This document shows positions 11,377-56,726 of a stretch of 64,000 nucleotides of DNA, piece by piece. The notes beneath the pieces are model-generated. The model was not told the DNA's origin and ran no database searches. It was given only the letters and a program-made list of their open reading frames with translations. A program made the translations under genes and the position numbers. Source of the DNA: Pseudovirgaria hyperparasitica (lineage: Eukaryota); NCBI GenBank assembly GCA_010093815.1, contig ML996566.1; one strand, 5' to 3'. Positions within the stretch are counted from its first letter, which is position 1; the number at the start of each line of letters is the position of its first letter.

Positions 11377-14300
11377 CTATGCGAAGCCAAAGTATTCGCT
11401 TCCGGCTGTCATGGCTGTGTAAAGCTGTTCGCGAAGTTTCTCGTAGCTGATATATTCTGGTAGATCGAGTTCTACGGTCATGTTAGCAATGCTACTAGCG
11501 TTCAGCATGATGAGAAGATGCTACTTACGATTGAAACAAGTGTGGGAGCTGGGCAGCCTGTCTTTGTTGCCTGGGTCCCGGTGGATGTTGAACTTGTTGA
11601 ATCCGTTCATTCCTTCGAGCTCCTTGAACCCGTTCAACGGAACTTTGCTGGTTCCCGTGACAAACTGCAATAGCTTCGCACGCTCCTCTTTGTCAAAGGA
11701 TCGTACTGCTCGCCAAAACCACTGTACTTGAGGAGCTGCCGCCGTGTAGCTGTGGTAATCGGTATTGTTTTTCCAGTCATCGACGTCGATATCGGGCAAA
11801 CCAGATATAAGCAATTCAAGTTCCTGTTCGTTGAATATTGATATGAGCTCGGCTGGAATGATGTCATGGAATCCTTTAAGAAAGCTTTCCAATTGCTCCT
11901 GAACAGACCCGGTGAGTTTGTACTCCACCACGAGGCGTACGTATTCGTGCTTGTTTTCTTCTGTCACAGAGATATTGCGCCCATTCTCAATCAAATCAAT
12001 CGTTTGAGCATCGCCAAAGTCGTCCGTCTCGGTGGAGAATGTTTCGGTTATGATGTCAGTGATGTCGTTCTCCAACATCCAGAGGAGTGACTTGTAGTAT
12101 TCTACGTCGAGGCTTTCCATATCTTTGATGCTGACAGGCTTGCCAAGGATACGCTTGTACACAGCTCTACTGAAGTGGCAGTCGAGCACGCGGCCCTCAT
12201 AGAGGGCTTTGCCGATGATACGACCGATGAATTTAAAGAAAGTGAGGTGCTCCGAGTTGACGCTACTCAAGCGGTTTGGATGGAAGGTAGTGCGATCAGA
12301 TGCAACAGGGACAAATAGTGCGTAGTTTGCATCAAACATTTGTCTCGCGAGGACTTGAAACCATTCGCGTGTCACACCACCAGCATCAACACCCTCCTCT
12401 CCATGAAACCTAATGTTCAATTTTCCATACTTCATCTCATCAGCCGACTTGAAGTATAACGACCTGAATGAGTCAAGGAACACTTGATCACGTCGAACAG
12501 ACAGTTGTAGAGGCTGGTGGGGTTGGCGGGTCTCAGTACGGCTGTGGAGGCGTCGGCTGAAGTAGTTGCGTTTGTTGTCGAACTCGAGAACCTTCGAGTT
12601 CCTTACCAGTAGGGAGAAGGAGCCGCTCATGAGTTTCGGATTGTGACGAACCAAATCGTTGAGGATCTTGCGATGATCCTCCGTGAAAGCGAAGAAAAGA
12701 TTCTCCATGCGGCTCTCCGGTGGCGGACTAGACAGCGTGAACTCTTTCTGGTGGCTCTTCGCAGCATGAGAATCCTTCAAAGACGTATTTTTGCAAACTA
12801 TCATTAGTATCTCTATAAGAGGTAGCAGGATCGTAGCTACGTTGAACATGTTCTCACGCTGGCGGATGGCCGCAAGGCACTCGCTTAGTTTGCCCCAGAG
12901 TGAAGCGAAGGTCGGATTCTCGTAGAGTCTGGTTAATATGTCTTCTTTTTGTGCAATTGAGAGACCTGCACTTGATTTGGCTGAATGTTTATCTTGCGCA
13001 TCTGCACGTTTGGGATCAAACAAGTAGTCGAGAGCAGTCAATACACGAAGCAGTTTTGCCTGGTCAGAACTCGCAGGGGAGAAGTTGGCGAGCGCCAAAC
13101 CTTGCACATCAGTCCCGGTACGGGCCGTCGATATCTGTATAACAAGCTCTGCAAGATCATTGAGAATCGACTGGCCAAGGTCTTGAGACTGACTTATCAA
13201 CTCTTGACCGAAGACCTCTTTTGCGCCTGGAATTGCAGACAAGTAGCTAATCACCGACAAGGTGTCGCGAAACGTTTTGCTGCTGCATTCTCGAGCAGCC
13301 AAAATGTTAACTACGAGACGAAGATTGTAGTCCGGCACTTCAGGTGCCGTCAGAGCTTTCGGCTTCTTCAAGGTCTCATGCAAAGACTCTTCGGGCTTGT
13401 TACTTTCTGCCTGGGTAGTTGTAGAAGCCATACCAGTCGTAGAGGCTTCCGCAGTTGCAGCCATAGATACATCGACTGTGGTAGATGTACCGGCGGAGTT
13501 TGATATCGACAGACCAGTTGCATCGATAGCTGACGCCGTTACGGCGCTAGGTGTGGCAGGAACTCCCTCATTGGTCACTTGACCCAGCGCTTGCTCGACT
13601 TTCCCTTGTTCTTTCTTGACCAGTACCTGCAATGGTACAGTTATCTTTGAAAGCAGCGCCGCCAATTGCTCCATGACAATCGAACTTTCGATGATAACTT
13701 TACGATCCAGCAAACTAAGAAGGGCGTTCAATGGAAAACGGCTGACTTTGTTTTCTTTATTCTTCCCTTTCCGGGGTGTTTTGGTTTTCAGCGAAGCAGC
13801 TGTTGTTTCGTGCTCCGATAGGAAGAACGAAGGGATGTGACTATCCTTCTCAGCCAGGAATGATAAGGTAGTCAAACATTGTTGCACCACCATCAGGGGC
13901 GACAACTCGGAATGCGAAGAAGTGTATCCAGATATAGACCGCTTAGGCTGAGGTGTTTTTTGAAGTGTCGGTTGTTTCGCGCGTATTGTCAATTGAGCAA
14001 AGCTTCGTTCCACTGCGTTGACATCGGCACTCCCATCTTGTAGAATTGACAGTAAAATACTAATTACTTCGGCTCGATTCTGGCGGTTTTGACAAACGTT
14101 TTTCAAGGTCTCGTTCAGATAGCGTTTCTCCTGTGGAATAAACATGAGACGGAGCAGGGTCGCAATACCTGCCTTGTCTAACATTTGAGCTGCTGGTCGA
14201 GGTTTTGCTTTCTTCTGGCTTTCTTCGCCGATAGAGAGATTAAGTATTCGGGGTCTCTCCGCACGGTGTACGCCGTTGAACTGGTTCAAATGTCGATCTC

Positions 14301-17300
14301 CACCCAGGGCCCTAGCTTCCGCTGCGATATGAGCAGGTAGGTGCCCTAACATTTCTTCGTCCTGATCCATGAGCACGGCTTGCCGTAAGCCAGGATCAAG
14401 GGAAGCCAGAAAACTGGCTGGGTCCATTTCTTCCGCGCGAGGTGGAGGGGCTGCTCCACCAGCGTTCCCACGTCGACGTGCCTCTTCACGCTCACGGCGA
14501 CGTCGATCTTGAGCTTCTTGCTGGAGGATTTCTTCGCGGATATCGGCGGGCAGCGCCTCGAGAAACTCTGGACTTATGTCTGTTGGAGCTTCGCCAGCAG
14601 CTACAGCTTCTGATCGCTGCTCAGCGACACGCTGCATGAGCACTTCCTCTCGTAACTCGTCTGGTAACGCCTCTAAGTATTCCATGTCGATGCCAAGATT
14701 CGTGATATCAATTTCTCGCCCTCGGATGGTCGTTGTAACTCGGGCCTGAGACTCGGACTCAGCGCCCTGTACTTCGTTGGCAATGTCAGCATCGTCAGCC
14801 TCCTCAGCCACCTCGACACCTTCCATAGCGTTAGATACTTCGTTTTCGTTCGCGAGATCTTGCCCAACTTCGGCTTGTTCGCGTGCGCGAGCTTCTGCTT
14901 CAGCTGCTTCTTTCTCCTCACGTTCCTTTTGCTCTTTAGCCTCCCGTTCAGCACGTTCCTTCTCTGCTTTCTCTCTGGCCTCAGCATCTTCTTTTGCCTT
15001 CCGTGCCTGTCTCTCAGCAAGCTCTTTCGCCTTTTGCTTGGCAGCCTCCATTGCTGGCGGAACTAGCAGTCTGAGGATGGAATTGATCAAACGCTGGCTT
15101 ACATCCGCAGCGGTTGCACCATAGAGGATGCGTGCCTCGTCTACCCATCGTGTCTTTGTGTCAGTAGCCACGAAAGCTACTGCATCGTTGGGACTTTCGC
15201 GTGAACCGCGCGAGCCAGAGACATCGTGAGCTCTACGGAGGTCACGTCTCAAAGAGCTTTCATAGGTGCCGGGAAGAGGAGGTAGTTGATCCACGCGGGT
15301 TCCAAAAGAGAGGTGGATATTGCCATTGTGAGTTGTCACTGTTGGGCCACCACTGCCGATTGCGTTGATCAGGTTACTTATGAAAGAGACTGGACCGTCC
15401 CCTGCCATGAATCGACCGGATTGGAGAGGATCTATGCTGTGGAAAAAGTCCTGCATGGCCATGTGTCGGATAGCTCCGACTTGTGGGGCAGCAGGTGTCC
15501 GACCGGAGCGTTGCAAGAGAGGGTTGGTCCCATCATCCGGATTTCTGTTAGTACCGGGACGGTGAGATCGGTAAGCAAGAAGACCTCTGTCAGACCCCAT
15601 CCATGGGTGTAAGCGATGTGCGTGAGTATGTCCGTGGTGATGATGCCCGTGGAGGTGATGAGCGCGCATTGGTGGTGGTGGATCGTCCCATCGCCATGCG
15701 CCACCTTCCTCCTCCTCGTCATCATCATAGTGATCGCCATACAAGAAGTCATCGCCTTCCTCATAGTCCACTTCTGCTTCTGCGTCCTCTTCGTCCACGT
15801 CGTCTACCTCATCGTCTTCTTCGACCATTTCGTCCTCTATAACGTACGTGGCTTGGTTCCCTCTTTCGCGGAATGTTTGCACAAGGCCATCCGCAGTATC
15901 ATTGAGATTCATGAGGTTGTCTAGCGGTGGAAGGACAACATGTGCGTCATCTTCCATGTCATCCTGGCCAGGATAATCCTCTCCATTGTCTTCATTCTCC
16001 CATCCGTCTTCCTCACCAGATTCCCCACTCGATCCATCATCCTCTTCCGCTATGATTTCCACGTGATTCATGATATCGTCCATGTCTTCATCATCATCAT
16101 CTTCTTCTTCTTCTTCGTCGTCGCCACTATCGTCGTCATCTTCATCTTCATCATCGTCCATATCCGAATCGCCATCGTCAATTGTAAGTTCGACTTCAGC
16201 AACGTCTCCAGAAAGTCCCTCAATCGGCCCTACTCCATCAATTTCGTCTTCGTCGTCGCTGATGGCATCTTCATTTCCATGTGGATTATCATCTTCAAAT
16301 TCCATCTCATCCTCATAGTAACCATCGTCCATTTCGTCGTCCTCATCTTCTTCACCGTCCTCAGATTCTGACTCATATTCATCCTGACGAGTCGGATCTA
16401 GCAGACCCAAAGTCGAGTTCCTAAACAGGTCCGGAGTTGCCTCGCGTCCATCGACATCCGACAATGAGGACGAAGTGCTCGCAATGTCATCGTCCTCAAA
16501 TTCTACTACGTTTGTCATTGATGCTGGAGCCGTACTGACCTCCACACCAGTAGATGTGAGCGTTCTCAGGGTTTTCAAAATATGTCTGACTGCCCTTTCT
16601 GCGTTAGGGTAATTGAGGTCGATTTCCGCGATGGCGCCCGTAAGTGAGACGACAAAATTCTTCTCATACATGATTTTGGACAGCTGCTTTTGAGAAGACA
16701 TTTGACGGCTGTTGACGTGTGCCGGATTGTTGGGATCCGTGATCAATTTACCATTGATCATACGGTTGAATAGCTCGGCGAGCACCATCAGTCGAGCATA
16801 TTTGGAGTCGAGAGGTTCTAGCGAAGCCGTCGCATCTCTGAACGATTTCAGTGCATGTTCTAGTACGAATCGCCGTACGTAGAGGAGTTCCATATCTTCA
16901 TCTGCGTCATTGACTCCATCCGTCATGCTTGCGTATTTCTCCTCAGTCTTGGCACAAAGACCTACTATAGCCAACATAGCCCAGTTCGATGTTGCTGCTT
17001 GTTTACGATTTGCGGTATCCTCTGCATGACTCAAAGAAGCGACTGGGACAAGGCTGTTCAACAGGTAGTTCAAAATCCCAGACCGCGGCTTCGAGGGTGT
17101 GCTCGCGTGGGGGTCTGCCTTTCTGGAAAAATTGATGAACTCGACCTTTGCACGATTGTATGATGATAAGAGCTCCGTCAAGCATTGGAGAATAAAGCAT
17201 CGGTATATGAAGAAAGGATGTTGTTCAGCCTTGAAGTCTTGCTTTTCAGGTTTCTTCGCTTCCATAAGGCTCGGTGTAGAGTTCTGGGAGTCCCCTTCAT

Positions 17301-20300
17301 TGCTGCTCCTGCCGATAACTGCGGCTGTAGAACTTTCGGCCGAATTATTAGAGGTAGTTGCAGTTGGCTTGTCTTCTACGTCTTTGTATGCAAGTAATTC
17401 GCACAGTAGGTAGTGTATCACCCCATCAGGAGTCTCCACCACAGGGCAGCGAAGCTCTTGCGTTTTCGTCCTCTCTTGCTTCTCTGGCTTTTTGCCTTCG
17501 GTAATTGAGCTCCTCTCGTTCTCGATAGCGACTGTTGTGGATACGGCTTCCACGCCATGTTTGGTACTCGGTTCGGTATTTGATTTTTGAGCAGGCTTGA
17601 GGGCAAGACTTTGAGGCCTTTGGCTTGGCTCCCAGCGTGGAAGCATAAGCTTTTCGTTTGTAACTTCAACAAAGATGTCAGGGTTCCTAATGGCCAGGTG
17701 ATATAGATGCCTTGTGTAGCCTGTTGTATCTTTCTGACGACCTTCTCGGGTCTCAAATAGACTTTGAATCTCGCTTCTCATGATTTGTCGAATAGTTTCA
17801 TCGTCCTCTACCATGTGGCGCAGTATAACTAGAAAAGCACTCTGAAGCTTTTCATTTGTGATGCCAGAGAGTTGTCTGACCATTAGGAACAGGCGCTGGA
17901 TATTCTTCTTTTGACTGAGAAGAGTGGCAATCTCACGCTGGCGAGTTAGAATGACAAGAATGCGCGAAATAGCAAGGGCCAACACTTCGTCTTTCCCAAC
18001 GTACGGTAATAGTTCAGTGATTGCCTTAAACAGAGCAATCTTCTGGTCTTTCCGAACAATGACTGTGGGTGCTGCGACAGTTGATATGTCAAAAGATGAC
18101 TCTTCGCCGCTTGGCGGTGTCCATTGAATCTGCGGTGGCCGTGCATCATCGGAGAGGAGCATCTCTAACACCAGAAGGACAGGTCCTATCCAAGGAGAAG
18201 AGTCTTCTTTCCCTTGGCTAGGAAAAATCTTGACAAAGCTTAGCAGTGCTTCGAAATTATCCTGTAATTGTTCCAGAGTCGCATCGTAGAAAGGCTTGTC
18301 TTGCAACGTAAGTCCAAGAAGATGAGCAGAGGCCGCGATTTGCTTTGCGTTAGGCCGCAGGTCATCGTCGACTTGGAAAGATATTAGAGACTGGACAAGA
18401 GTCTGTCCAATCTCACGGCGTAAAGATACAGGATCTTGTGCCTTCGTGACCGCCGCGCTAATCAAATCAGACAGATCGAACGTGATGGCCTCGTGGGCAT
18501 TGAGTACTTCCAGGGAACGATCAATCAGTATTGATCGAAGCTCATTGCGTTGATCATTAAGATCGTCGATTGTTATCATCTTGGAGCGAGCTTCGACTAC
18601 AGTGAATTTCTCGAAGTAGGATGGGCCGGAATAGCTTGAGGAGCTGCTTCCACCAGCATTGTCCGTACGTGCGTGGGAGGCTTCGGCTTCGCCAGGCGCC
18701 AGCGCTGCAACATCTTCCATGATTATAGATTGATCCATCTCCGACGGCCCTATCGCTGTGCTTTCGGGCACTTGCATGGTAGTAAAATTAGTAGCTGCTG
18801 GGATACCCGCACTCCTCTGAGTTGCTTGTGTCATTTTGTTCTCATATCGAGGGATATCGTTCCTCGTTGGTCGAGAACTCCTTAGGAAAGCTTTGCAATA
18901 CTCTATTGCCGCTGCCACATTATCGTTGCACCGATAGAGAGCCTCTCGGGCAAGGGACTCGTCAACATTTGGGAGATCAGTCAATTTCTTCATGCCGTCA
19001 TCACTACGCATCTTCCAAGGTCGAAGGGTCGGATTGGCTCGGGGAAGTGGGCTGTCTGAACGTTTGAAGGCGTTACTTTCCCCCTCGGCTTCCAATACGA
19101 TCTTCAATGTATCAACGAGGCTCTTGACGATAGGTATTGTGCACTTTTCCATCAGTTCAGCCTTCCAAAGTTGCATTACGGGACGCATGACAGTTAACCG
19201 GAGCTCAACAATAAATTGTCCGATCGAAAAATAGTCCTGAGTCTTCTCTCGGTCAGGTTGGGCGAGAGCGGCAGTCTGCACCGCTTCGCCAACAATCTTC
19301 GAATTGATTATTTGCGCGTAGAAGTTAAGTATGATTCGAATCCCACCAAAGGATAGGTCCAATAGACCTTGTTCTTCACTTGACAAGCTAGAACCGTCAG
19401 GAAGTGGTCGCGTCACTATCGTACTTGCTTCATTGATGAATGACTCGAGGATATGTTGGAGAGCCTCGAAGCCACCTTGGTTTTTGAAGCAAACCAGTAT
19501 CAAAGTTATCGTCTGCGGAAATCCTCGTTCCATGGAGTCATCCAACATGACTCGGGATATTGATGTCAGAATCGTAATCCAGTAGGGATAGCGATCCTTC
19601 GCAGAGATTGAGTTTTTTGGAGGCGCGAACAATAGTTGGTCAATGGTAGCTTTGGCGATCTGATCGGCAACGACATAGGCACATTGCTTATGGTAATCCT
19701 TACTGCTACGACGGAATAGAAGCAACTTACCGAGAGACTGCAGAAAGGGAGTTATGGCCGTAGGCACGCGACAAAGAAGAAAGCGGAGTGTGCGGGTGTT
19801 CTTGAATCTAGCCGTTGCTGATTCCTTGACAACGCTGGACACAGCTGACTCCTGTTCGTTACCCGTAGCGCGAGCAACAGGGTCTCTGTTGGTAGTGGCT
19901 GGTGACGCGAGATCTGCCGGTGGCAATCGTCCCATGTCAAGCAAGCTGTCGAGCTCTTCCGAGTTCATGCCACTGCCCTTCACTCGCGTGGAACTTTCCC
20001 ATTCCCGAGGCATGTTCCTTTGGAGTAGAACTTCCTCCCAAACGCAACTACGATGCAGTCTGCCGAGACTGTAAATGAGCCTAGAATATAGATCCGCAAG
20101 GTTGACTTGACTGAAGATGTTGTGGTTGGACCTCTGACTGAAGAACTGATTCTGGAACGCATAGCTCATTATCGCACACAGTGTTTGTACAGAGACAAGA
20201 GCTTTTACGTATTTTGTCCCATCTACAGTTCTGTCAAGATGCCCAATCTCAGTCCGCGGAATGCTTATTTTGCTGGTGGTGAAGGGACTGAAAAATGCCG

Positions 20301-23300
20301 TATCTTCAGCATGATCTATCAGAGGCTTCAGGACGTCGACTGCACGCTGAGCTCTGCTGATGAGCTGGGGTAGTACCAAGTGCGGCTTCTGCTCGATTAA
20401 GGGCTGAAGCACACGACAGAGATCCTCTAATGAATTTGCCCATGCGTCGTCTGAGACATTATAAGGCAACGATGGCATAATTGCAAAATCTATAAGCAAT
20501 TCGATACCATCCCCTTCTGCGAATGCGAAGATCGAGTTCGAATTGGAAAAGAATCCGGTAAGAAACCTGCAGACTGCACCTATGTACTGAGTGGTGGAAG
20601 GTGTATCTTTTGCATCTTCACATTCAAGGACTTGATCGATAGCGGCGCTTCCTGTCGTTGATTGACCATCGAGAGGCTCTGCATCATGCATATCAAGATC
20701 ATCATCGACAGAGCCTGAGGTAGGAGCTGCTTGCGGTTGGCCCTTATTGTGCAGCTGACTATCGCCTTGTAGTGCTTCCCGCCCTCCAGCAACGTGAAGC
20801 CGCCCGATATCATCTTCAAGCCATAGCTTAGCACCTGCGCCTAATTCAGACGCCCTTGCGAAGCAGAGCTTGCCAACACGCCCAATCATTACTGAAATGG
20901 CACCCACGATTTCCGACTTCAAATTGGGGTGATGTCGCACCAATTCGTCGAACGACGAGCCAAGGGTCCCTGCCATATCTTGCTCTTGTTCCATGGCCTT
21001 TACATGCACCGGGCTCTCAAACACCTCAAAGAAACTTTCCATTGCGCGAGAGTGTTTGAACAGCTTCATACCTGCCTCGTTCAGGCAAATCGCTCCAAAC
21101 CCGGGAGGGATTTGGGACATGGCGTCTGCAGATGGAAGGATGCCAGGAGCCAATGGTTCGCTGGCTGGATGGTTGATTCGATTTAATAGACCGGCATCTG
21201 GCATTACAATCTGCACACGGGTCGATGAAGCTCCCTCTTCGTTGGGCGCCGGATCAGAGGAAGAGGTCATTTCAGAAAAGCTGGCTTGGGGTAGAGATCT
21301 TGAGATGACTGCTTCTAAGAACGCGTGACACAATCCTGCCTCGGCAACGACGGCATAACTTGTCGGCTCGTTATGGAGGAAGTTCGTCAGGATGGCGACA
21401 GCAGTACTCCATACTGTTGAACCAAAGATCTTGGCGTTCTCAAGTACTGTGCGCAGAGCTCGAAGCAGTTGCGGTGAGTCCATAAGGTTTCGAAGGAGTC
21501 GTTCGAAATTGGCATTTGCATGAGTCAACATACGATTTGTTAACTTTACAAGCCAGCGGAGATTCTGCTGCTGATGCCACTGAATTTCGTAGTCCGTAAG
21601 CTGTGTCTTATACTTGGAAGGCATAGTTTTGCCCTCTTTGACGTTGGAATAAGCGGAGTCAACTTGGAAAGAAGTAAGGTCAGCAATGCTATCCAAGCCC
21701 TTTGCATTGACAAATGATTGGAACGCATCCCTGATACTAAACAAGAATGAATCAAGAAATCCCAGAACCCTTGGATAGTTCCACTCGGCCTTTCTTGTGC
21801 GGAAGTTTAGTATTTCGACCAGAACTTCCAACAAACCAGCTGAGATTAAGGTTTCGCCAGTTCGCGGCTGACACATTGGCAAGCTATTCAGGAGGTCAAA
21901 TATCGAATCCCGATATTCTTCCTGCGCTTCATCCGATGTGTCGTCATTCGCGAGTTCTGTCACAACCTTCCGCACCACATAAAACAAGACTCCATGGTTT
22001 ACATTGACGCTCAGAGCGGCAACCACGTCACCAGACCGATTCTTGTGTTTTGTCAAAGATTCCAATGTTATGATAGCACAAGATTGCAATGCTGTCGAGA
22101 CTTGCATCCTTGAGTTGCGTTGAGGTTGGACTAGTTCGGCTAATTGATATGGTAGCTGAAACCGACGTGGCTCATCATAGTCAGGTTGTGAGATCTTAGA
22201 ATGAAATATGTTTTCGGAGAATACGTAGGCAAGATTAGCTATGGCGAGTAGGCGGACAGCAACAATATCTTCCCGCGCAGATCTAGTTGATGACATAGCA
22301 GATGCGACGCGTATGCGATGCAGTGTTTCGTACTGGTAGTCCTCAGGAATATCTTTGACCGACTCTTTCACGAGATCATGAATCGATGCAGATTGAAGCT
22401 TAGCGGCTGAAATCTCGAGAACCTTTGGCCCTGTCGAGCGGTCTGAATCTAGCTTGGTTGTAATGTCTGTTTCAGGGCTCGCAGGCGGATATTGCTGCTG
22501 ACTCAGGTTCGAGCTTCGTCGTGCCGGTGTCGGTGTCACAGGGGTTTGCAAGAATTCAGGAATAACCTCTTCTGCATGCGAAGGTCTCGTGTTGGTGTCG
22601 TAAAATGTGAGTCGAACAGTTGCGCGTTTGTCGCCCTCCTCCTCTGTTGTAAGGCCAACTAGATCACCAGTAGCCCATTTCGGGCGTGTATCATCGTCGG
22701 ATTTGTTGGCCGGCTTCTCTTTGCCTTTGCTAGCAGAAGGAATAGAGCCCGTAGGCTTGGCAAATGCCGAAGCTAATCTATGCATATTGTCCAGACTTAT
22801 GGCGTAGTGACTCGAAAGTAAGATGGCATGCGATGATGTCGACGGCATTCTTTGCCTGGACGCATAGTAGCGCTGCGCAAGTCGTAAAGATAGATGAAGC
22901 GTGACTTTCAGCAGTGAAAGTGAGGTTGTGTTGAGCAGGTAATTGAGGTGGATGCTACTTGCGTAAAGATTACGGTTTCCACAATTGTCAAGAAGCAATC
23001 TGGTAAAGACCAGCACACTTTCGATAAGTTCATGGTCGCCATCTTCAGAAAATCCATTCTCATCGAGAGTGTCCTTGTCTGGTAACGAGGCTGATGGACT
23101 GTACTCTGCTCCTTCGCCTTTCAATAGCAGACGTCGTCCGAAGCACTCGGTTTGAGGGCCTCTTGTGAGGCCATACTCACTATTGAAAACTTCGAGTATT
23201 TGATCGAAACGATTTAGTGCTGGTATCCAGTGGTAGAGGTCGCCTCTGGGGAAGGGCCAGCCGCGTGGGAAAGAGGCTAGGTGTTTTGGTAATTGGTATA

Positions 23301-23448
23301 GTGGTATCGAAGCGGTGGCTTTCGCAAACTCCGACACAGCTGGTGACTAGGCACTAAAGTTAGAATGTAGATACATGGTTCGTCTGACAGACAAACTCAC
23401 CAGTGTGACCTCATGGCGTGGCAAGGCAGACTTATTAATTTTCACCAT
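11377..23448 (-). CDS. TOM1: HECT E3 ubiquitin ligase Tom1/HUWE1 (~3990 aa); 3 exons
   Basis: Exon 1 MVKINKSALPRHEVTL (23401-23448), intron 23347-23400, an 11.8-kb exon, intron 11472-11528, last exon QLDLPEY...EYFGFA*. Motifs: N-terminal WPFPRGDLYHW, acidic tract, UBM repeats (EYLEALPDELREEV, EFLEALPADIREEI) and HECT domain (GEEGVDAGGVTREWF, catalytic SHTCFN). Confidence 0.97.
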
Positions 23449-46993: not shown

Positions 46994-49900
46994 TATTAAG
47001 GTTAGTAGGCAGAAATACTAAGAGTTATGTTCCGGAACTATGTAAGAACCCGCGGTGTCACCCTGTATAGGCTGCAGATAAGGCATTGAGACATACTTTT
47101 TTTTTAATATCAGTTAGTGCGTTGTCGTGTATCGCAAGAGAGGAAATAAGCGCTCCTGTAAAAGTCAGTCTCGATCATGCACGCTTACGTCAGACGACCT
47201 TTGTACCGCATTTACTTACTCTGGTGCTTATTCCGGTGCTCTAAGCCTGCAATACAGGATGTCTCTTGACAGCAGGTAATGATCAGCTGTATGTTCGTAC
47301 TTTCTGCATCATATTTAGGCGTGGTAAGAATCATTGATTTGTCATTGCATGGGTCAAACATCCAAAACAGGTCTCTCCAGCCGGGTGTCTACTCAGCAAG
47401 CAGTCATTTGGCCTTGTAAAATCCAGATCTTGCCTACCATTATCGAAAGGATATATCTTTTAGATTAGGAAGGTATAATACTCTGACCAACTTGATGCCC
47501 AGGACTCCACATGAGAATGCATCGGACATTCTTGTTCGTTCAGCATCGGATCATTCCTCGTGCATCCAACTAGTACGCATCCATCATTTTAGACGGGATG
47601 CTCGCATGGAGAACTGATCACCTGACAGGATTCGCAATCGATTCCAGGTCCGATAGGCAGATGCACTCTGATCACGAAACTAGCTGCTTTGGTCTGCTTC
47701 TAGGATACCCTGGCTGGTCTCGTAGTTCGAAGCTTTGCCGAGAACCTCTGGAGGGTATATATTCCCTTGCATGTTGGAAACACGAGGACTTGAGGGTAAA
47801 TCTGAAGCCTGTAAAGCATGGTGAGCATAGATTCGGAGAAGACTGCCATTAATCAATGGATCAAATGAGCCAGTTTTCCGGTTCACACCTTCGGAAGCAA
47901 AAGCTTCTATGGTATAGAAAAGGCCGATCTTGTCCCCAGACGAGTTGCTCTGAGCAAGACCAGCTGCAATCAAGGTCACAATGTCTTACCAGGTCTCCAG
48001 GTGCATCTTGCGTACGTATGCCCAGGTACGTGAAGTCCATGCGAGTAAAGTGTGGTCGCGAGCCGTCAGCGCGCCGGAAGGTCGATGACCACAGGTCTCG
48101 TCTTCCAGGACTAGTACTTGCGTACGTTTTGGCACACCGCTTTGCGATGTACGATTGTGCCAACGTCCATATTCACCAGGGCTCGTCGCGACACCAATTT
48201 AAAACATCGGTTCTTTTTCCAATGACATAGCTTGGTCTCGCAGCAAAATCGCCATAACTGTCGTATCAGCTGTAACATGCATGCTATCTAACGCGACCAA
48301 ACCGTCCTTGATGCTTTCTAAGAAACATGCGGTTTGGTAAGCTGCGCTGCAAGTTGAGCCTAGTGAGAGACTTTAGTATCTCGGCGTCGAGTGCGACCGC
48401 TGCGGAAACTGTGGGATGTATAATATGTCGGACAAGGCTGGCGATAAAGATAAAGCAGGCCGTGTGAGCCTCTGCCGTAACGGGCTCCAGAAAGTGTGTC
48501 AGGACAATAGGACAAGAACAGCGCCAATCAAGTAGTTGCCCAGAAGGCGACCAGGCTAAGAGTACTGAGCTGCCGTCTGACCAACATGCATTTCAGAGGA
48601 CTGCTACATAGTCCTAGCAGCAATGAAAGAGGACAGGCTTCGGATGGATCATGATCTTTGAGGTGCGCCAGATTACGAATGCCGTTAGCGCAGAGATACT
48701 GCGGCAACTACCGGTTGATGGCGTGAATCGCGATACGGCAATGTCTCATTCATAATCCGTAGCCTTCTGAATCTTTGTTGTCGAATCGCATCACAGCGAT
48801 TGACAGGAAGCTGCGCTACACCGGTACTTGTCCACAAGTCCAGCTTGACTACGATCGGGCAACAACGCCGCCGTCATTGGTATTCGAGAATCCGATTTCG
48901 TTCCTCTGTCGTGGCTGAACGTTATCGAAAGTGCAACTGTTGGAAAGGCGTTTCTGTGGACCGGCCATTCCGACGAAGAGCCTCCAAGAGAGGGCGAAGA
49001 CAAGGATCACTGCTGTGGCCTGCAGAAGATCTCCACTCGAGGCTGCAAGTCCGCACGAGGTGCTCGAGATCGGCGCTGCATGCAGGTGCTTTCTTTAGCG
49101 TATAGCGTTTCGGATGGATCATGGAACCATTGGAACGAGGCGACGGAATATGCATGGATCTCTGAAGTCGCGTTCGCTGCAGTCTTTGAATGTTGGCGTA
49201 CATGATGCAGCTCAACAAGGCGCAAACCGTGCATGCCTGACACTTATGTTCATCGCGTGATGAGTCGAAGATGTCCGCCTGATAACATAACACGGATCTG
49301 GACTTTATTTGCCTGATGCAGCGTAGCACAAGGTGGATGGAGTCGTAACTGGTCGGAAACCTTTATACACGAGACATTGGCGTCCTGATTCTGCTTCGGA
49401 CTTTGACGTCGCCGACCTCGGTCTAGATAACGCCAGGGCTAGCTGGTAGAGGTCCGCCAGTCCGGATAAATGTCCATTTGTCGGGGCTTGCTGTCTCTTT
49501 GAATCTCTCGCTGCTGCGACCCAGAAATCGAATTTTTGATACTCCGCGGGATACATCCCTCGGACACATCTGCTCATGCTGGGAAAGTCCATCTGAATGT
49601 CTCGTGTTGCAGCCAGATGAGTTCTGTTGCATGTATCAAGCTCACCCCGCAGTAGAGCGGTGTGTAGTCATGTTATCCCTTAGAAAGTATGCCTATACGT
49701 TGCCAAGCTCTCGCGAACTTTAAATCCATAGAATACGGAGCTTGAGAGCGGTGAAAATCACTTTTGTGTCCCGAGCAGCGTGTCGGCCAAATTCGCAGTG
49801 TATCTGCTGATAGCCAGGGAAGATGGAACGATCATCAGTGTCAAAGCACAGTTGAATAGCATTAAAAAGAAATGAGATTTGGGTATATAGTGCTGATCAC

Positions 49901-50790
49901 AAACCTATTGATGTGCAGCGAGTTATCCACCTTAGAAACAAGCAGAGTTCCAACATCCTCACATTGCAGACGCGCAGGTCTTGATCGACACTTGCTCTGG
50001 GAGGGAACGCCAGGTCCTCCAGAAAGATTTTGTAATGTTACATAAACATTGCAACTGACGGCTGCGTAATCACCAAAAATGGTGACACGAGATGAAGAAC
50101 CGACGAAACCACCCCTTGTCACGCCGCGATGCGTTGCATCATGACAAAAGTCAAGCCAGTGACGGGACGAAGGCCACCAATGCTAGCCTTGAAACAGCGA
50201 AATAAAAGTGAAAGAAAAGCTTAAGTTAGAATGTTTGACGACTCCAGGCTGTAAAAGTACAGAGCCGAGCGGTATGCTCGTTGCAAGACACGGGGCCTAC
50301 GATCCGAAAGGGGGAAACTGTGTTGAGTAGAAGTGCCGTAAGACACGAAAGCCTGGACTGGAATCGGATTGGGACTGATACGCCGCGGCAGACAAGCTGA
50401 TGGTCTCCAGTAGAATATATGAGGCCACTATGCAACAGGAAGCAGCGAATGAGGAAGCGGAAAGTGCTCATTAATACGAGAGAGCTGAGGTGGCCAGAAA
50501 GGATAGTTGCACGAATATGGTGTAGGTCCTCTCCTGATGTTATTATGCCTTCTTCAACACAATGCTAAAAAAGAAGCCGAGCCGAGCCTAGATCCATAGC
50601 TGACGCACCGTTGCCGATCGTCGAGGTGACGCAGAATGCTGTGGCCCAGATTTACACACTCTACGACCAAGTTAGCATATCTGTTCTACGCCTTGTGTGG
50701 TAAGACCCTGGAGCTAGAAATATAGTAGGCGGTTCTGGTGCTTGTGTTCTCACGGAAGACAATGAAGTAACAACTTACAGAATGAAAATA

Positions 50791-50955
50791 TTAATGCTTC
50801 TGTGAGCAAGGGGTGCAGGTTCTCAACTTGCAATTGCGACATTCGTAGATATACCAGTGTGGTCCGGAGTGACACAGCTGACAGTTCCATACTATCAGGG
50901 TCGTATCTGATTTGATGACTTGGAAAGAGTGTTGGCAAGTTCCTGAGGCAGCCAT
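50791..50955 (-). CDS. 54-aa Cys/His-rich zinc-finger microprotein (C1/ZZ-like spacing)
   Basis: MAASGTCQHSFQVIKSDTTLIVWNCQLCHSGPHWYIYECRNCKLRTCTPCSQKH*. Good start context (GCAATGG), upstream intron 50981-51036 and TATATAAA at 51285-51292. Below the 60-aa cutoff of the ORF track. Confidence 0.8.
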   Translation of the reverse strand: MAASGTCQHSFQVIKSDTTLIVWNCQLCHSGPHWYIYECRNCKLRTCTPCSQKH

Positions 50956-51284
50956 TGCGATTGAGTGCTTGGTGTAGGATCTGTCGTGGGGTCAATGGTG
51001 GAGGGGGCGTGTCTATAAGTGTGGTCTGAAGCTTACCTGAATATGGAGTTCCTGATATGCAGATGTGGAGAACGATGGTAAGGATTGGCGATAGACGGTG
51101 TAAGCAACGGAAGTGAGAACAAAAGCAATGATGGTTTAAGTACACCAATGATCGATCTAGGCAGCACTGAAAGCGGTGGGCCTAGGTGTTAATGGTTCAA
51201 ATTGGTCTTTGAGAGGAGATCCTTGATCATAAGCGAGTGTTGGCAATGAAGTGACAGGTTGTCGATGCAGGTAGTCAGGGTATG

Positions 51285-51292
51285 TTTATATA
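51285..51292 (-). promoter_or_regulatory. TATA box of the microprotein gene
   Basis: TATATAAA on the minus strand, followed by a pyrimidine-rich leader. Confidence 0.55.
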
Positions 51293-52200
51293 TCTGGCAG
51301 ACGCTCGTTGGCAAGCATCAAGTAGGAGTACCGTCAATTGATGCTGTAAATGACCATTTCCACCAAAGCCATTCTGCACGACGTATCGAGGAGTAGTGGG
51401 CGAGCGACCGTGTCGAAAAGTCTGAATAGAGAGTCATGACACTAGACTGACAGCAACCCAAGTGGATGGCATGCCGAAAAGAAATGTGTCTCAGACCAAT
51501 GGAGTCCGGCTGTCCCACTACACAGAGGTTTGATGAGGAATCGGGCCTATCATACGTGCGTTCTGCAGGCGCACCCAAACAGGCCATGAGTGAAAAGAGC
51601 TTGTTGTACACTAAGGCGCCAGTTGCCGTGCCTGTGGACGGCTCGATCCCTGCTGTCTGTCTGTGCCTCCATCCCCAAGCCTTCTTTGCTGGCTGTTTTG
51701 GTTCGAGTTTGTATATCTTATAAGAAGCTTTGCCATAATAGTAGTCGTCTACTTCCGCTTTTCGCTCCTACGTGGACAGCGGCATGTTCTTCGCAAGGCC
51801 GTGTGCAACGGTGGGAGTATATGTCCCGACAGTCTTTCAAAACATCACCATAATTGTCTCCACTCCCAAAGAGTCCATCGCTTTGATGGTCGCTGTCCAG
51901 GTCGGCGAATGGACGGAGTAAAGAACAGGAGTAACGAATATGAATCCTGCTTATGGAGATGGACGCTCAAGGCTGACGAGGAGTGGGACCAAGTAGTCGG
52001 CCTACATGGCTCGCAATAAGGTTCTGAATGCACTCCATGTTGACAGCGCCATGCTGCAGAATGCTGACATGCCCGCTTACAGTACAGTACATAACCTTAC
52101 GATGTTGTGCTTATGTGCGTAGTAGGTGAACTGTGTGGGAGACAGAGGGCGCGGCGCGGGAGGCAGAGGGAGACCGAAAGGCCCCGCCAGGTAGTGCGCA

Positions 52201-52275
52201 AGGGCCAGGGCCAGGGCCAGGGCCAGGACCAGGGGCTAAGGCTACCACCTAGGGCTAGGGCCCCTACCTAGGGCT
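52201..52275 (+). repeat. (AGGGCC)4 tandem repeat plus CTAGGG units; canonical G-quadruplex motif
   Basis: GGG runs at 52202, 52208, 52214 and 52220 with 3-nt loops. CTAGGG occurs three times nearby. Confidence 0.75.
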
Positions 52276-55691: not shown

Positions 55692-56726
55692 ATGATGCTT
55701 CGTCCTGCTTCTCGGTTATTACGGCTGTCGCCCCTCCACTCAATCCCGCGCGTTGCGCCTTCACGCAGACTTCTGAGCACTGCACCCCCAAGTCAAAAGT
55801 CGAGATCTTTCAAGAACAAATTAGTGCGCCTGGCGCTAGCTGGAGGCGTTGTATATTTTTACAACACCACTGATATATTTGCGGAAGAGCCATCCTGTAC
55901 GATAGATTGATGGAATCAGCCAATAATGTCATCCCCGTACTGACATCTCACTGCAGTCGTCCCACGGAGTGCCGAGTACGAGAGCGAACCTGAAAACCTT
56001 CCCACACTCGAAGCTCTTGCAACACAGCGAAAACAACAAAGAGCCAAGGTTGAAAGTAGACAGGATCAAAGCAACGCACAGCCAGCGCCAGTTACAGGAG
56101 ACGAGCACGCGTCAGGTGGAGAGCCCAATGGCATAGAACAACTGGAGGAAGAAGCAGGCCAACAAGGTGCATTCAATCCGGAGACCGGCGAAATAAACTG
56201 GGACTGCCCATGCCTCGGTGGCATGGCCCACGGTCCATGCGGTGAAGAATTCAAGACAGCTTTCAGTTGTTTTGTATTTTCGGAGGCGGATCCCAAGGGG
56301 ATGGACTGTATAGACAAGTTTCAGTAAGTACACCACTTCAATGAAGACAGGGAGCATACTCGGAAGGATACGGAACTCACGAAACACAGGGGCATGCAAA
56401 CCTGCTTCCGAAAGTACCCAGAGATCTACGGCTCTGAACTCGAGGACGACGATGAAGATGAACAGCAAGCACAAGATAAAGATGGTAGCCAAACTCGACC
56501 CGATCCCGAAACGACTCCTGATACATTGGCGCTGGCATCTAAAGATGATACAAGTATGCGTACAAGCACTGAGCAACCGAAATACACGGTTGGCGAAAAA
56601 GTGGCGGATAGAGGCCAAGAATACACATCTAGCCATGATTCAGCCATCAAAGATAAGCGTGCTCCTGGACAGGTAGCCCATCAAATAAAAGATCCTCACA
56701 GTAAAGCGACAGATGACAAATCGTAG
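55692..56726 (+). CDS. MIA40: Mitochondrial intermembrane space import and assembly protein Mia40; 3 exons
   Basis: Presequence plus TM ([13 protein letters not shown]), [36 protein letters not shown] and [19 protein letters not shown] (CPC plus twin CX9C). Introns 55897-55956 and ~56325-56389. Confidence 0.96.

Follow-up and report, generated by a model that had tools for sequence, protein, structure and literature searches.

The classical C1 domain follows the ligand motif H-x12-C-x2-C-x13/14-C-x2-C-x4-H-x2-C-x7-C. C1 domains (those of protein kinase C (PKC)-delta C1B, Munc13-1 and RAF1, and 'atypical' ones) reside within a kinase or exchange factor, and both the DC1 domain (C1_2, PF03107) and the TFIIH p44/Ssl1 domain (PF07975) are domains of large proteins. 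Here we describe a locus of the fungus Pseudovirgaria hyperparasitica (contig ML996566.1 of assembly GCA_010093815.1), lying in a stretch of 64,000 nucleotides that was analysed as a whole (the window), which is very probably a genuine gene for a 54-residue stand-alone zinc-finger protein with a C1-like character. Compared with C1 domains, this microprotein is free-standing, has spacings of H-x15 and x10 where the classical motif has x12 and x13/14, and would take its eighth ligand from a cysteine placed two residues before the histidine rather than from the C-terminal end.

A second point of comparison is provided by microProteins, small single-domain relatives of multi-domain regulators that are the subject of two reviews (PMC6003976, PMC9638782). 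The protein encoded here fits this description, as a single domain far under 20 kDa which is also found within larger proteins of some fungi. Unlike microProteins, however, its stand-alone form is widespread and its fused forms are sporadic.

50791..50955, minus strand: coding sequence of the 54-residue microprotein (ATG 50955-50953, TAA 50793-50791), supported by sequence, homologues, metagenome loci and substitution ratios

A conserved open reading frame under purifying selection

The open reading frame (ORF) had been proposed by a prediction made from the letters of the window alone (the original prediction), and retranslation reproduced it exactly: the minus strand at 50791-50955 encodes the 54-residue peptide as quoted, with the eight likely metal ligands (C7, H9, C25, C28, C39, C42, C47 and C50) at the positions given and in the spacing C-x-H-x15-C-x2-C-x10-C-x2-C-x4-C-x2-C. 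The peptide contained 7 Cys and 4 His, and was computed to have a mass of 6.2 kDa and a basic isoelectric point (pI 8.6).

HMMER was run exhaustively against 1.84 billion representatives and yielded 153 proteins at E<=1e-3, 74 of which reached E<=1e-10. A word-index search had returned no protein of similar length, a limit of its sensitivity as the HMMER matches later showed. Five of the 150 listed matches, all bacterial (P0120, P0127, P0137, P0138, P0148), were rejected as spurious, being repeat proteins that matched only via a KSDGSVV-W-like hairpin motif. The C-terminus of the query was the exact end point of 47 of 110 whole-domain matches. An alignment of 96 sequences was built from the query and 95 full-domain matches of at most 230 residues, in which the ligand columns were retained as follows: C7 in 84, H9 in 91, C25 in 96, C28 in 94, C39 in 95, C42 in 94, C47 in 93 and C50 in 91. 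All eight columns held Cys or His in 77 of the 96 sequences, while H29 (51/96), H33 (68/96) and H54 were not conserved, so that the eight ligands named by the original prediction are exactly the conserved set. Near-invariant positions were also found outside the ligands (K15, S16, W23, G31, P32 and I36, kept in 82-90 of 96), W23 and W34 being conserved aromatic loop residues, and the chain ended 4 residues past the last Cys in 42 of 96 sequences.

The family has a wide distribution among filamentous ascomycetes (Pezizomycotina). Members were found in Dothideomycetes (Lasiodiplodia, Macrophomina, Stagonospora, Piedraia, Lophium, Epicoccum), Sordariomycetes (including Pseudomassariella, Diaporthe, Chaetomium, Neurospora tetraspora, Magnaporthiopsis, Dactylonectria) and Leotiomycetes (Oidiodendron), and every named member is uncharacterised. 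The ESM Atlas contributed unnamed Ascomycota clusters only, of 54-58 residues. Searches of a literature library by conserved motif, by locus tags of members and by the topic of C1 domains and microproteins found no account of the family.

The family was also read directly from raw DNA. A pattern scan of metagenome contigs with alignment A2 recovered 203 stretches, 198 of them encoding relatives, and 80 loci were kept. Measured between the first in-frame ATG and the stop, the ORF had 54 residues in 57 of these loci and 53-62 residues in 76, with all three types of stop codon in use. Among 45 distinct 54-codon sequences, the window copy included, the mean proportion of nonsynonymous differences (pN) was 0.211 against 0.705 for synonymous differences (pS), and pN was lower than pS in 960 of 990 pairs; the window copy compared with the others gave 0.239 and 0.822, respectively. 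Entropy was 0.63, 0.46 and 1.26 at codon positions 1, 2 and 3. The microprotein is under strong purifying selection, with its length and both ends conserved.

A spliced minus-strand transcript

Two public sequencing runs of unrecorded type (X1 and X2, same sample and same study) provided contigs that showed no mismatches to the window. Their contigs contained five joints with GT..AG ends, one of them in the neighbouring dehydrogenase gene, and because of these ends we infer that the contigs derive from transcripts. The following layout was obtained at the locus:

51037..52020, minus strand: first exon and 5' leader, to contig limits (X1 up to 51610, X2 up to 52020; the true start may differ)
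51285..51292, minus strand: TATA-type motif TATATAAA, a putative promoter element read from the sequence, with contigs reaching upstream of it
51189..51230, minus strand: upstream ORF of 13 codons that shares the main frame and ends in a stop, read in the frame of the spliced leader
50981..51036, minus strand: 5' leader intron of 56 nt, GT..AG (joint 50980/51037, one contig per run)
50779..50980, minus strand: middle exon with the whole ORF, a 25-nt leader and a 12-nt trailer (two joints, contigs of X1 and X2)
50661..50778, minus strand: intron of 118 nt in the 3' untranslated region (UTR) (joint 50660/50779, one contig per run)
48591..50660, minus strand: third exon and long 3' UTR, to contig limits (X1 down to 49859, X2 down to 48591)

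A spliced RNA of the minus strand carries the ORF, which lies entirely, stop included, in one middle exon. The leader was indeed spliced as predicted, the contigs joining 51037 to 50980. The GTAAGT donor of the 118-nt intron begins 12 nt past the stop, and a CTAAC branch-like motif lies close to its acceptor. The proposed TATA box was found as a motif, TATATAAA, but contigs extended past it upstream. Reading 5' of the ATG in the frame of the spliced leader, no start is encountered ahead of the in-frame stop at 51189-51191. This excludes the ORF as the tail, or last exon, of a larger protein, and the blocked N-terminal extension, together with the same-length ORF in the metagenome loci, agrees with the proposal of a free single-domain microprotein.

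Splice-like motifs also flanked the ORF in other members. Of 67 distinct loci, 41 had a donor-like GTRNGY within 60 nt 3' of the stop (background 0.17) and 18 had GT immediately after the stop; a branch plus acceptor pattern within 80 nt 5' of the ATG was present in 43 of 65 (background 0.18). Across the family, donor-like and acceptor-like motifs flanking the ORF were about 3.5-fold over background. These motifs point to introns on either side of the ORF, in both UTRs, as a family trait, the RNA support being confined to the window.

Predicted C1-like fold with a displaced zinc ligand

AlphaFold2, given the 96-sequence alignment, returned a model with a mean predicted local distance difference test (pLDDT) of 81.1 and a predicted template-modelling score (pTM) of 0.58. 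In this model, the protein adopted a compact, C1-like two-zinc fold of about 50 residues, with two small sheets and a short C-terminal helix. The Foldseek list was led by C1 domains, namely the Munc13-1 C1 (E 0.017, TMq 0.61), the RAF1 cysteine-rich domain and PKC C1, and TFIIH p44/Ssl1 and a plant DC1 domain ranked below them. The likeness to C1/DC1 fingers in the original prediction is thus reflected in the ranking, at non-significant scores. ZZ, zf-HIT and RanBP2/NZF fingers gave no significant match, ranked structurally below the C1 domains and have no counterpart to the N-terminal C-x-H pair of the microprotein.

The predicted structure would correspond to the fold of the PKC 'cysteine-rich' domain, with two zinc ions held in a cross-brace, site A being formed by C7, H9, C39 and C42 and site B by C25, C28, C47 and C50. 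The classical ligand motif is not reproduced, the eighth ligand being displaced to C7, which, two residues ahead of the histidine, would replace the usual C-terminal ligand. Since the chain stops short of the classical last-cysteine position, C7 would be the obvious substitute. The pattern of ligand loss in the alignment is consistent with such a C1-type cross-brace: loss of C7 accompanied loss of C39/C42 (3/12 vs 0/84, p=0.0015) and of H9 (p=0.0007), and was not linked to loss of C25, C28, C47 or C50 (p=0.26), statistics that were drawn from the alignment and come from related sequences, some of which are perhaps faulty models.

Known families were approached only at sub-threshold scores. In Pfam, none of the 96 members reached any family threshold, and C1_1 (PF00130) was not among the families matched by them at E<=0.01. 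C1_2/DC1 was matched weakly by 4 of 96 members (best E 0.0017), the microprotein itself having no match. For the microprotein, zf-HIT (PF04438) reached E 0.067 and 13.4 bits against a cut-off of 24.7, and the TFIIH C1-like family C1_4 (PF07975) reached E 0.33. Among PDB sequences, the TAB2 NZF finger, with the same W-x-C-x2-C-x10-C-x2-C spacing, was non-significant against the profile of alignment A1 (E 0.079).

Several of these observations weigh against a genuine gene for a C1-like finger. Foldseek found no match in the PDB at E<=1e-3, and C1_1 was unlisted for the microprotein in Pfam even at E<=10. Three or more CxxC pairs occurred in 1 of the 226 ATG-initiated ORFs of 40-100 residues in the window (the microprotein ORF itself), and Markov-1 simulations of the window gave 0.075 such ORFs expected per 64 kb, so that chance would be enough to produce the CxxC pattern by itself again when much sequence is scanned. 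Moreover, if the contig ends were the real starts, the leader would contain 8 (X1) or 15 (X2) upstream ATGs; a start just 3' of TATATAAA would leave the single 13-codon upstream ORF. Homology and purifying selection lift the ORF above a chance pattern, and both homologues with conserved Cys/His positions and a spliced transcript were found, the absence of which would have spoken against the gene.

Possible function

In other fungi, the domain was internal in four proteins with Myb and C2H2 domains (P0043, P0046, P0157 and P0158, two of them labelled JGI/IMG) and in a bZIP protein (P0119), and it also occurred within one ubiquitin-like-domain protein and one EF-hand protein. That Myb-C2H2 and bZIP proteins have incorporated it speaks mildly for a function alongside transcription regulators, and the near-total conservation of the surface favours a specific macromolecular partner. 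By analogy with these fused forms, the microprotein might act as a small protein-interaction or regulatory module, perhaps linked to transcription, rather than bind diacylglycerol, an assignment that we put forward tentatively.

The fold itself would also agree with a free lipid or membrane sensor that, like classical and RAF-type C1 domains, binds diacylglycerol or acidic phospholipids. The top structural matches were lipid-binding C1 domains, the protein is basic with W23 and W34 conserved in its loops, and the member from Piedraia hortae (P0057) carries the UniRef name 'Phorbol-ester/DAG-type domain-containing protein'. Compared with the classical motif, however, the first Cys pair is preceded by a loop that is 3 residues longer and followed by one that is 3-4 residues shorter, Pfam C1_1 did not match, and the fused forms resemble transcription factors, not membrane proteins, so that lipid sensing appears unlikely.

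A broader version of the regulatory reading is speculative and, taken together, rather unlikely. It would have a free C1-fold protein with a permuted ligand regulate Myb-C2H2 and bZIP factors in trans, and the middle-exon layout serve as a dedicated device for microprotein expression (splicing-dependent export and translation without nonsense-mediated decay); the cox1 and nad4L fusions described below would hint at traffic of the domain between nucleus and mitochondrion.

The original prediction had suggested a zinc or redox sensor, and a zinc store, zinc chaperone or thiol-redox sensor could draw on the seven cysteines among 54 residues and on a mean word depth of the contigs at the locus (288, 372) near that of the neighbouring gene's contig (262, 678), depth being a poor measure of expression. 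Conservation extends beyond the ligands to almost all positions, which is more in keeping with a specific binding surface than with a metal buffer, and we regard such a role as improbable.

It is more improbable still that the locus yields a long non-coding or poorly translated RNA in this species, with the ORF conserved elsewhere but unexpressed as protein here. Contigs spanned 1.6-3.3 kb for an ORF of 165 nt, which implies long untranslated regions, and the leader of up to about 1 kb carries the upstream ATGs counted above. Against this, all eight ligands are present in an intact ORF, whose ATG is flanked by a purine at -3 and by G at +4, a start close to the TATA motif would keep only one short upstream ORF, and the window copy is itself still constrained. 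Frames in the third exon (48591..50660) had no Pfam match, and Rfam gave no match across 48.0-52.6 kb at E<=1, which also left the candidate reading of a snoRNA host unsupported.

Deposited gene model and annotation of the family

The public record contains a 158-residue 'hypothetical protein' of P. hyperparasitica (P0002) that starts at the same ATG, matches the ORF exactly through residue 41 and then has a different C-terminus. Mapping placed it in three exons, with an exit from the ORF at 50832 via a GC donor:

~50609-50658 and 50229-50528 (50229..50658), minus strand: exons 2 and 3 of the deposited 158-residue model, placed by mapping and unsupported, their junctions being absent from the contigs

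The gene was accordingly 'hidden' in part only, a model having been called from its ATG and having left the frame after residue 41. That the three-exon protein is the true product and the 54-residue frame a read-through of exon 1 is barely credible despite the record and the shared 41 residues, since its first intron requires a GC donor within the ORF and an acceptor 2 nt off the RNA-supported one, both junctions are missing from contigs that splice at 50778/50661 beyond the stop and run unspliced through the second modelled intron, its alignment is confined to query residues 1-43 with no homologue supporting the model past residue 43, and the stop position is kept in 57 of 80 metagenome loci. 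The deposited model at the locus is a mis-splice, although contigs can lose rare isoforms and this splicing may occur as a minor one.

The microprotein is often mis-annotated, in this genome as in others. Among 145 fungal representatives, which as cluster representatives may favour longer models, 16 were clean stand-alone proteins, 55 had N-terminal extensions, 28 diverged before the last Cys like the deposited model, 20 had C-terminal extensions and 19 contained the domain internally. The layout with introns in both UTRs would explain such faulty models.

Mitochondrial-looking relatives

A subfamily of the domain was observed at the C-terminus of ORFs of 200-470 residues (P0077, P0149, P0097, P0136, P0140 and P0061), located on contigs of 4-102 kb. 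Three of these ORFs extend the COX1 frame past its end (P0077, P0149) or run on in frame from NAD4L (P0097). A short stretch resembling the cox1 C-terminus was common to P0077, P0149 and P0136, and more loosely to P0097; the ESM Atlas returned nothing for the N-terminal part of P0136. A nuclear-looking relative (P0081) shared 80-85% identity in the domain. Judged from these sequences, the subfamily resembles an ORF of mitochondrial and possibly mobile nature that contains the same zinc module.

Genomic surroundings

The locus had been described as the only credible gene in about 8.7 kb. Pfam matched none of 57 stop-to-stop frames of at least 60 residues between 46.9 and 55.7 kb at E<=0.01 (a 58th, 50791-50991, was scanned separately), in agreement with that description for recognisable frames, but low-depth spliced contigs were present at 47.3-48.6 kb and from 52.7 kb. 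Those at 47312-48634 had introns at 47573-47628 (plus strand) and 47808-47988 (minus strand) and no Pfam-recognisable frames, and the RNAs may be non-coding or antisense. A short-period repeat occupied 52100-52250, where frames read as Gly-Pro or Pro-Trp runs; read mapping skipped 52192-52244 as repeat, and transcript contigs stopped just short of it, at 52020-52068.

Neighbours in 11 long loci varied (Eaf7, EF-G, PRPP synthetase, BCKD kinase, MOSC, Med21), and synteny offers no functional clue. In the window, the next gene (55944-56327, plus strand) showed a weak CHCH-domain match (E 0.0065) and, by eye, a CPC motif; we take it to resemble the mitochondrial import oxidoreductase Mia40. A single frame of 3941 codons at 11521-23346 (minus strand) with DUF908, DUF913, UBM and HECT domains corresponded to a giant HECT ubiquitin ligase. 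Other genes of the window were ordinary fungal ones (P450s, an SNF2 helicase, a BING4CT/WD40-repeat protein, the dehydrogenase).

Implications for the family

The locus is a concrete example of a conserved fungal microprotein mishandled by standard annotation, as shown by 16 clean models among 145 representatives against an ORF of 53-62 codons in 76 of 80 metagenome loci, a rough comparison given the possible preference of cluster representatives for longer models. Introns placed around the ORF in both UTRs are possibly a general gene layout, which would account for the mis-annotation. The C1 fold, as predicted here, would gain a stand-alone form in which one zinc ligand is displaced, in a family that has neither a Pfam model nor a literature of its own and is present in many plant-associated and saprotrophic fungi.
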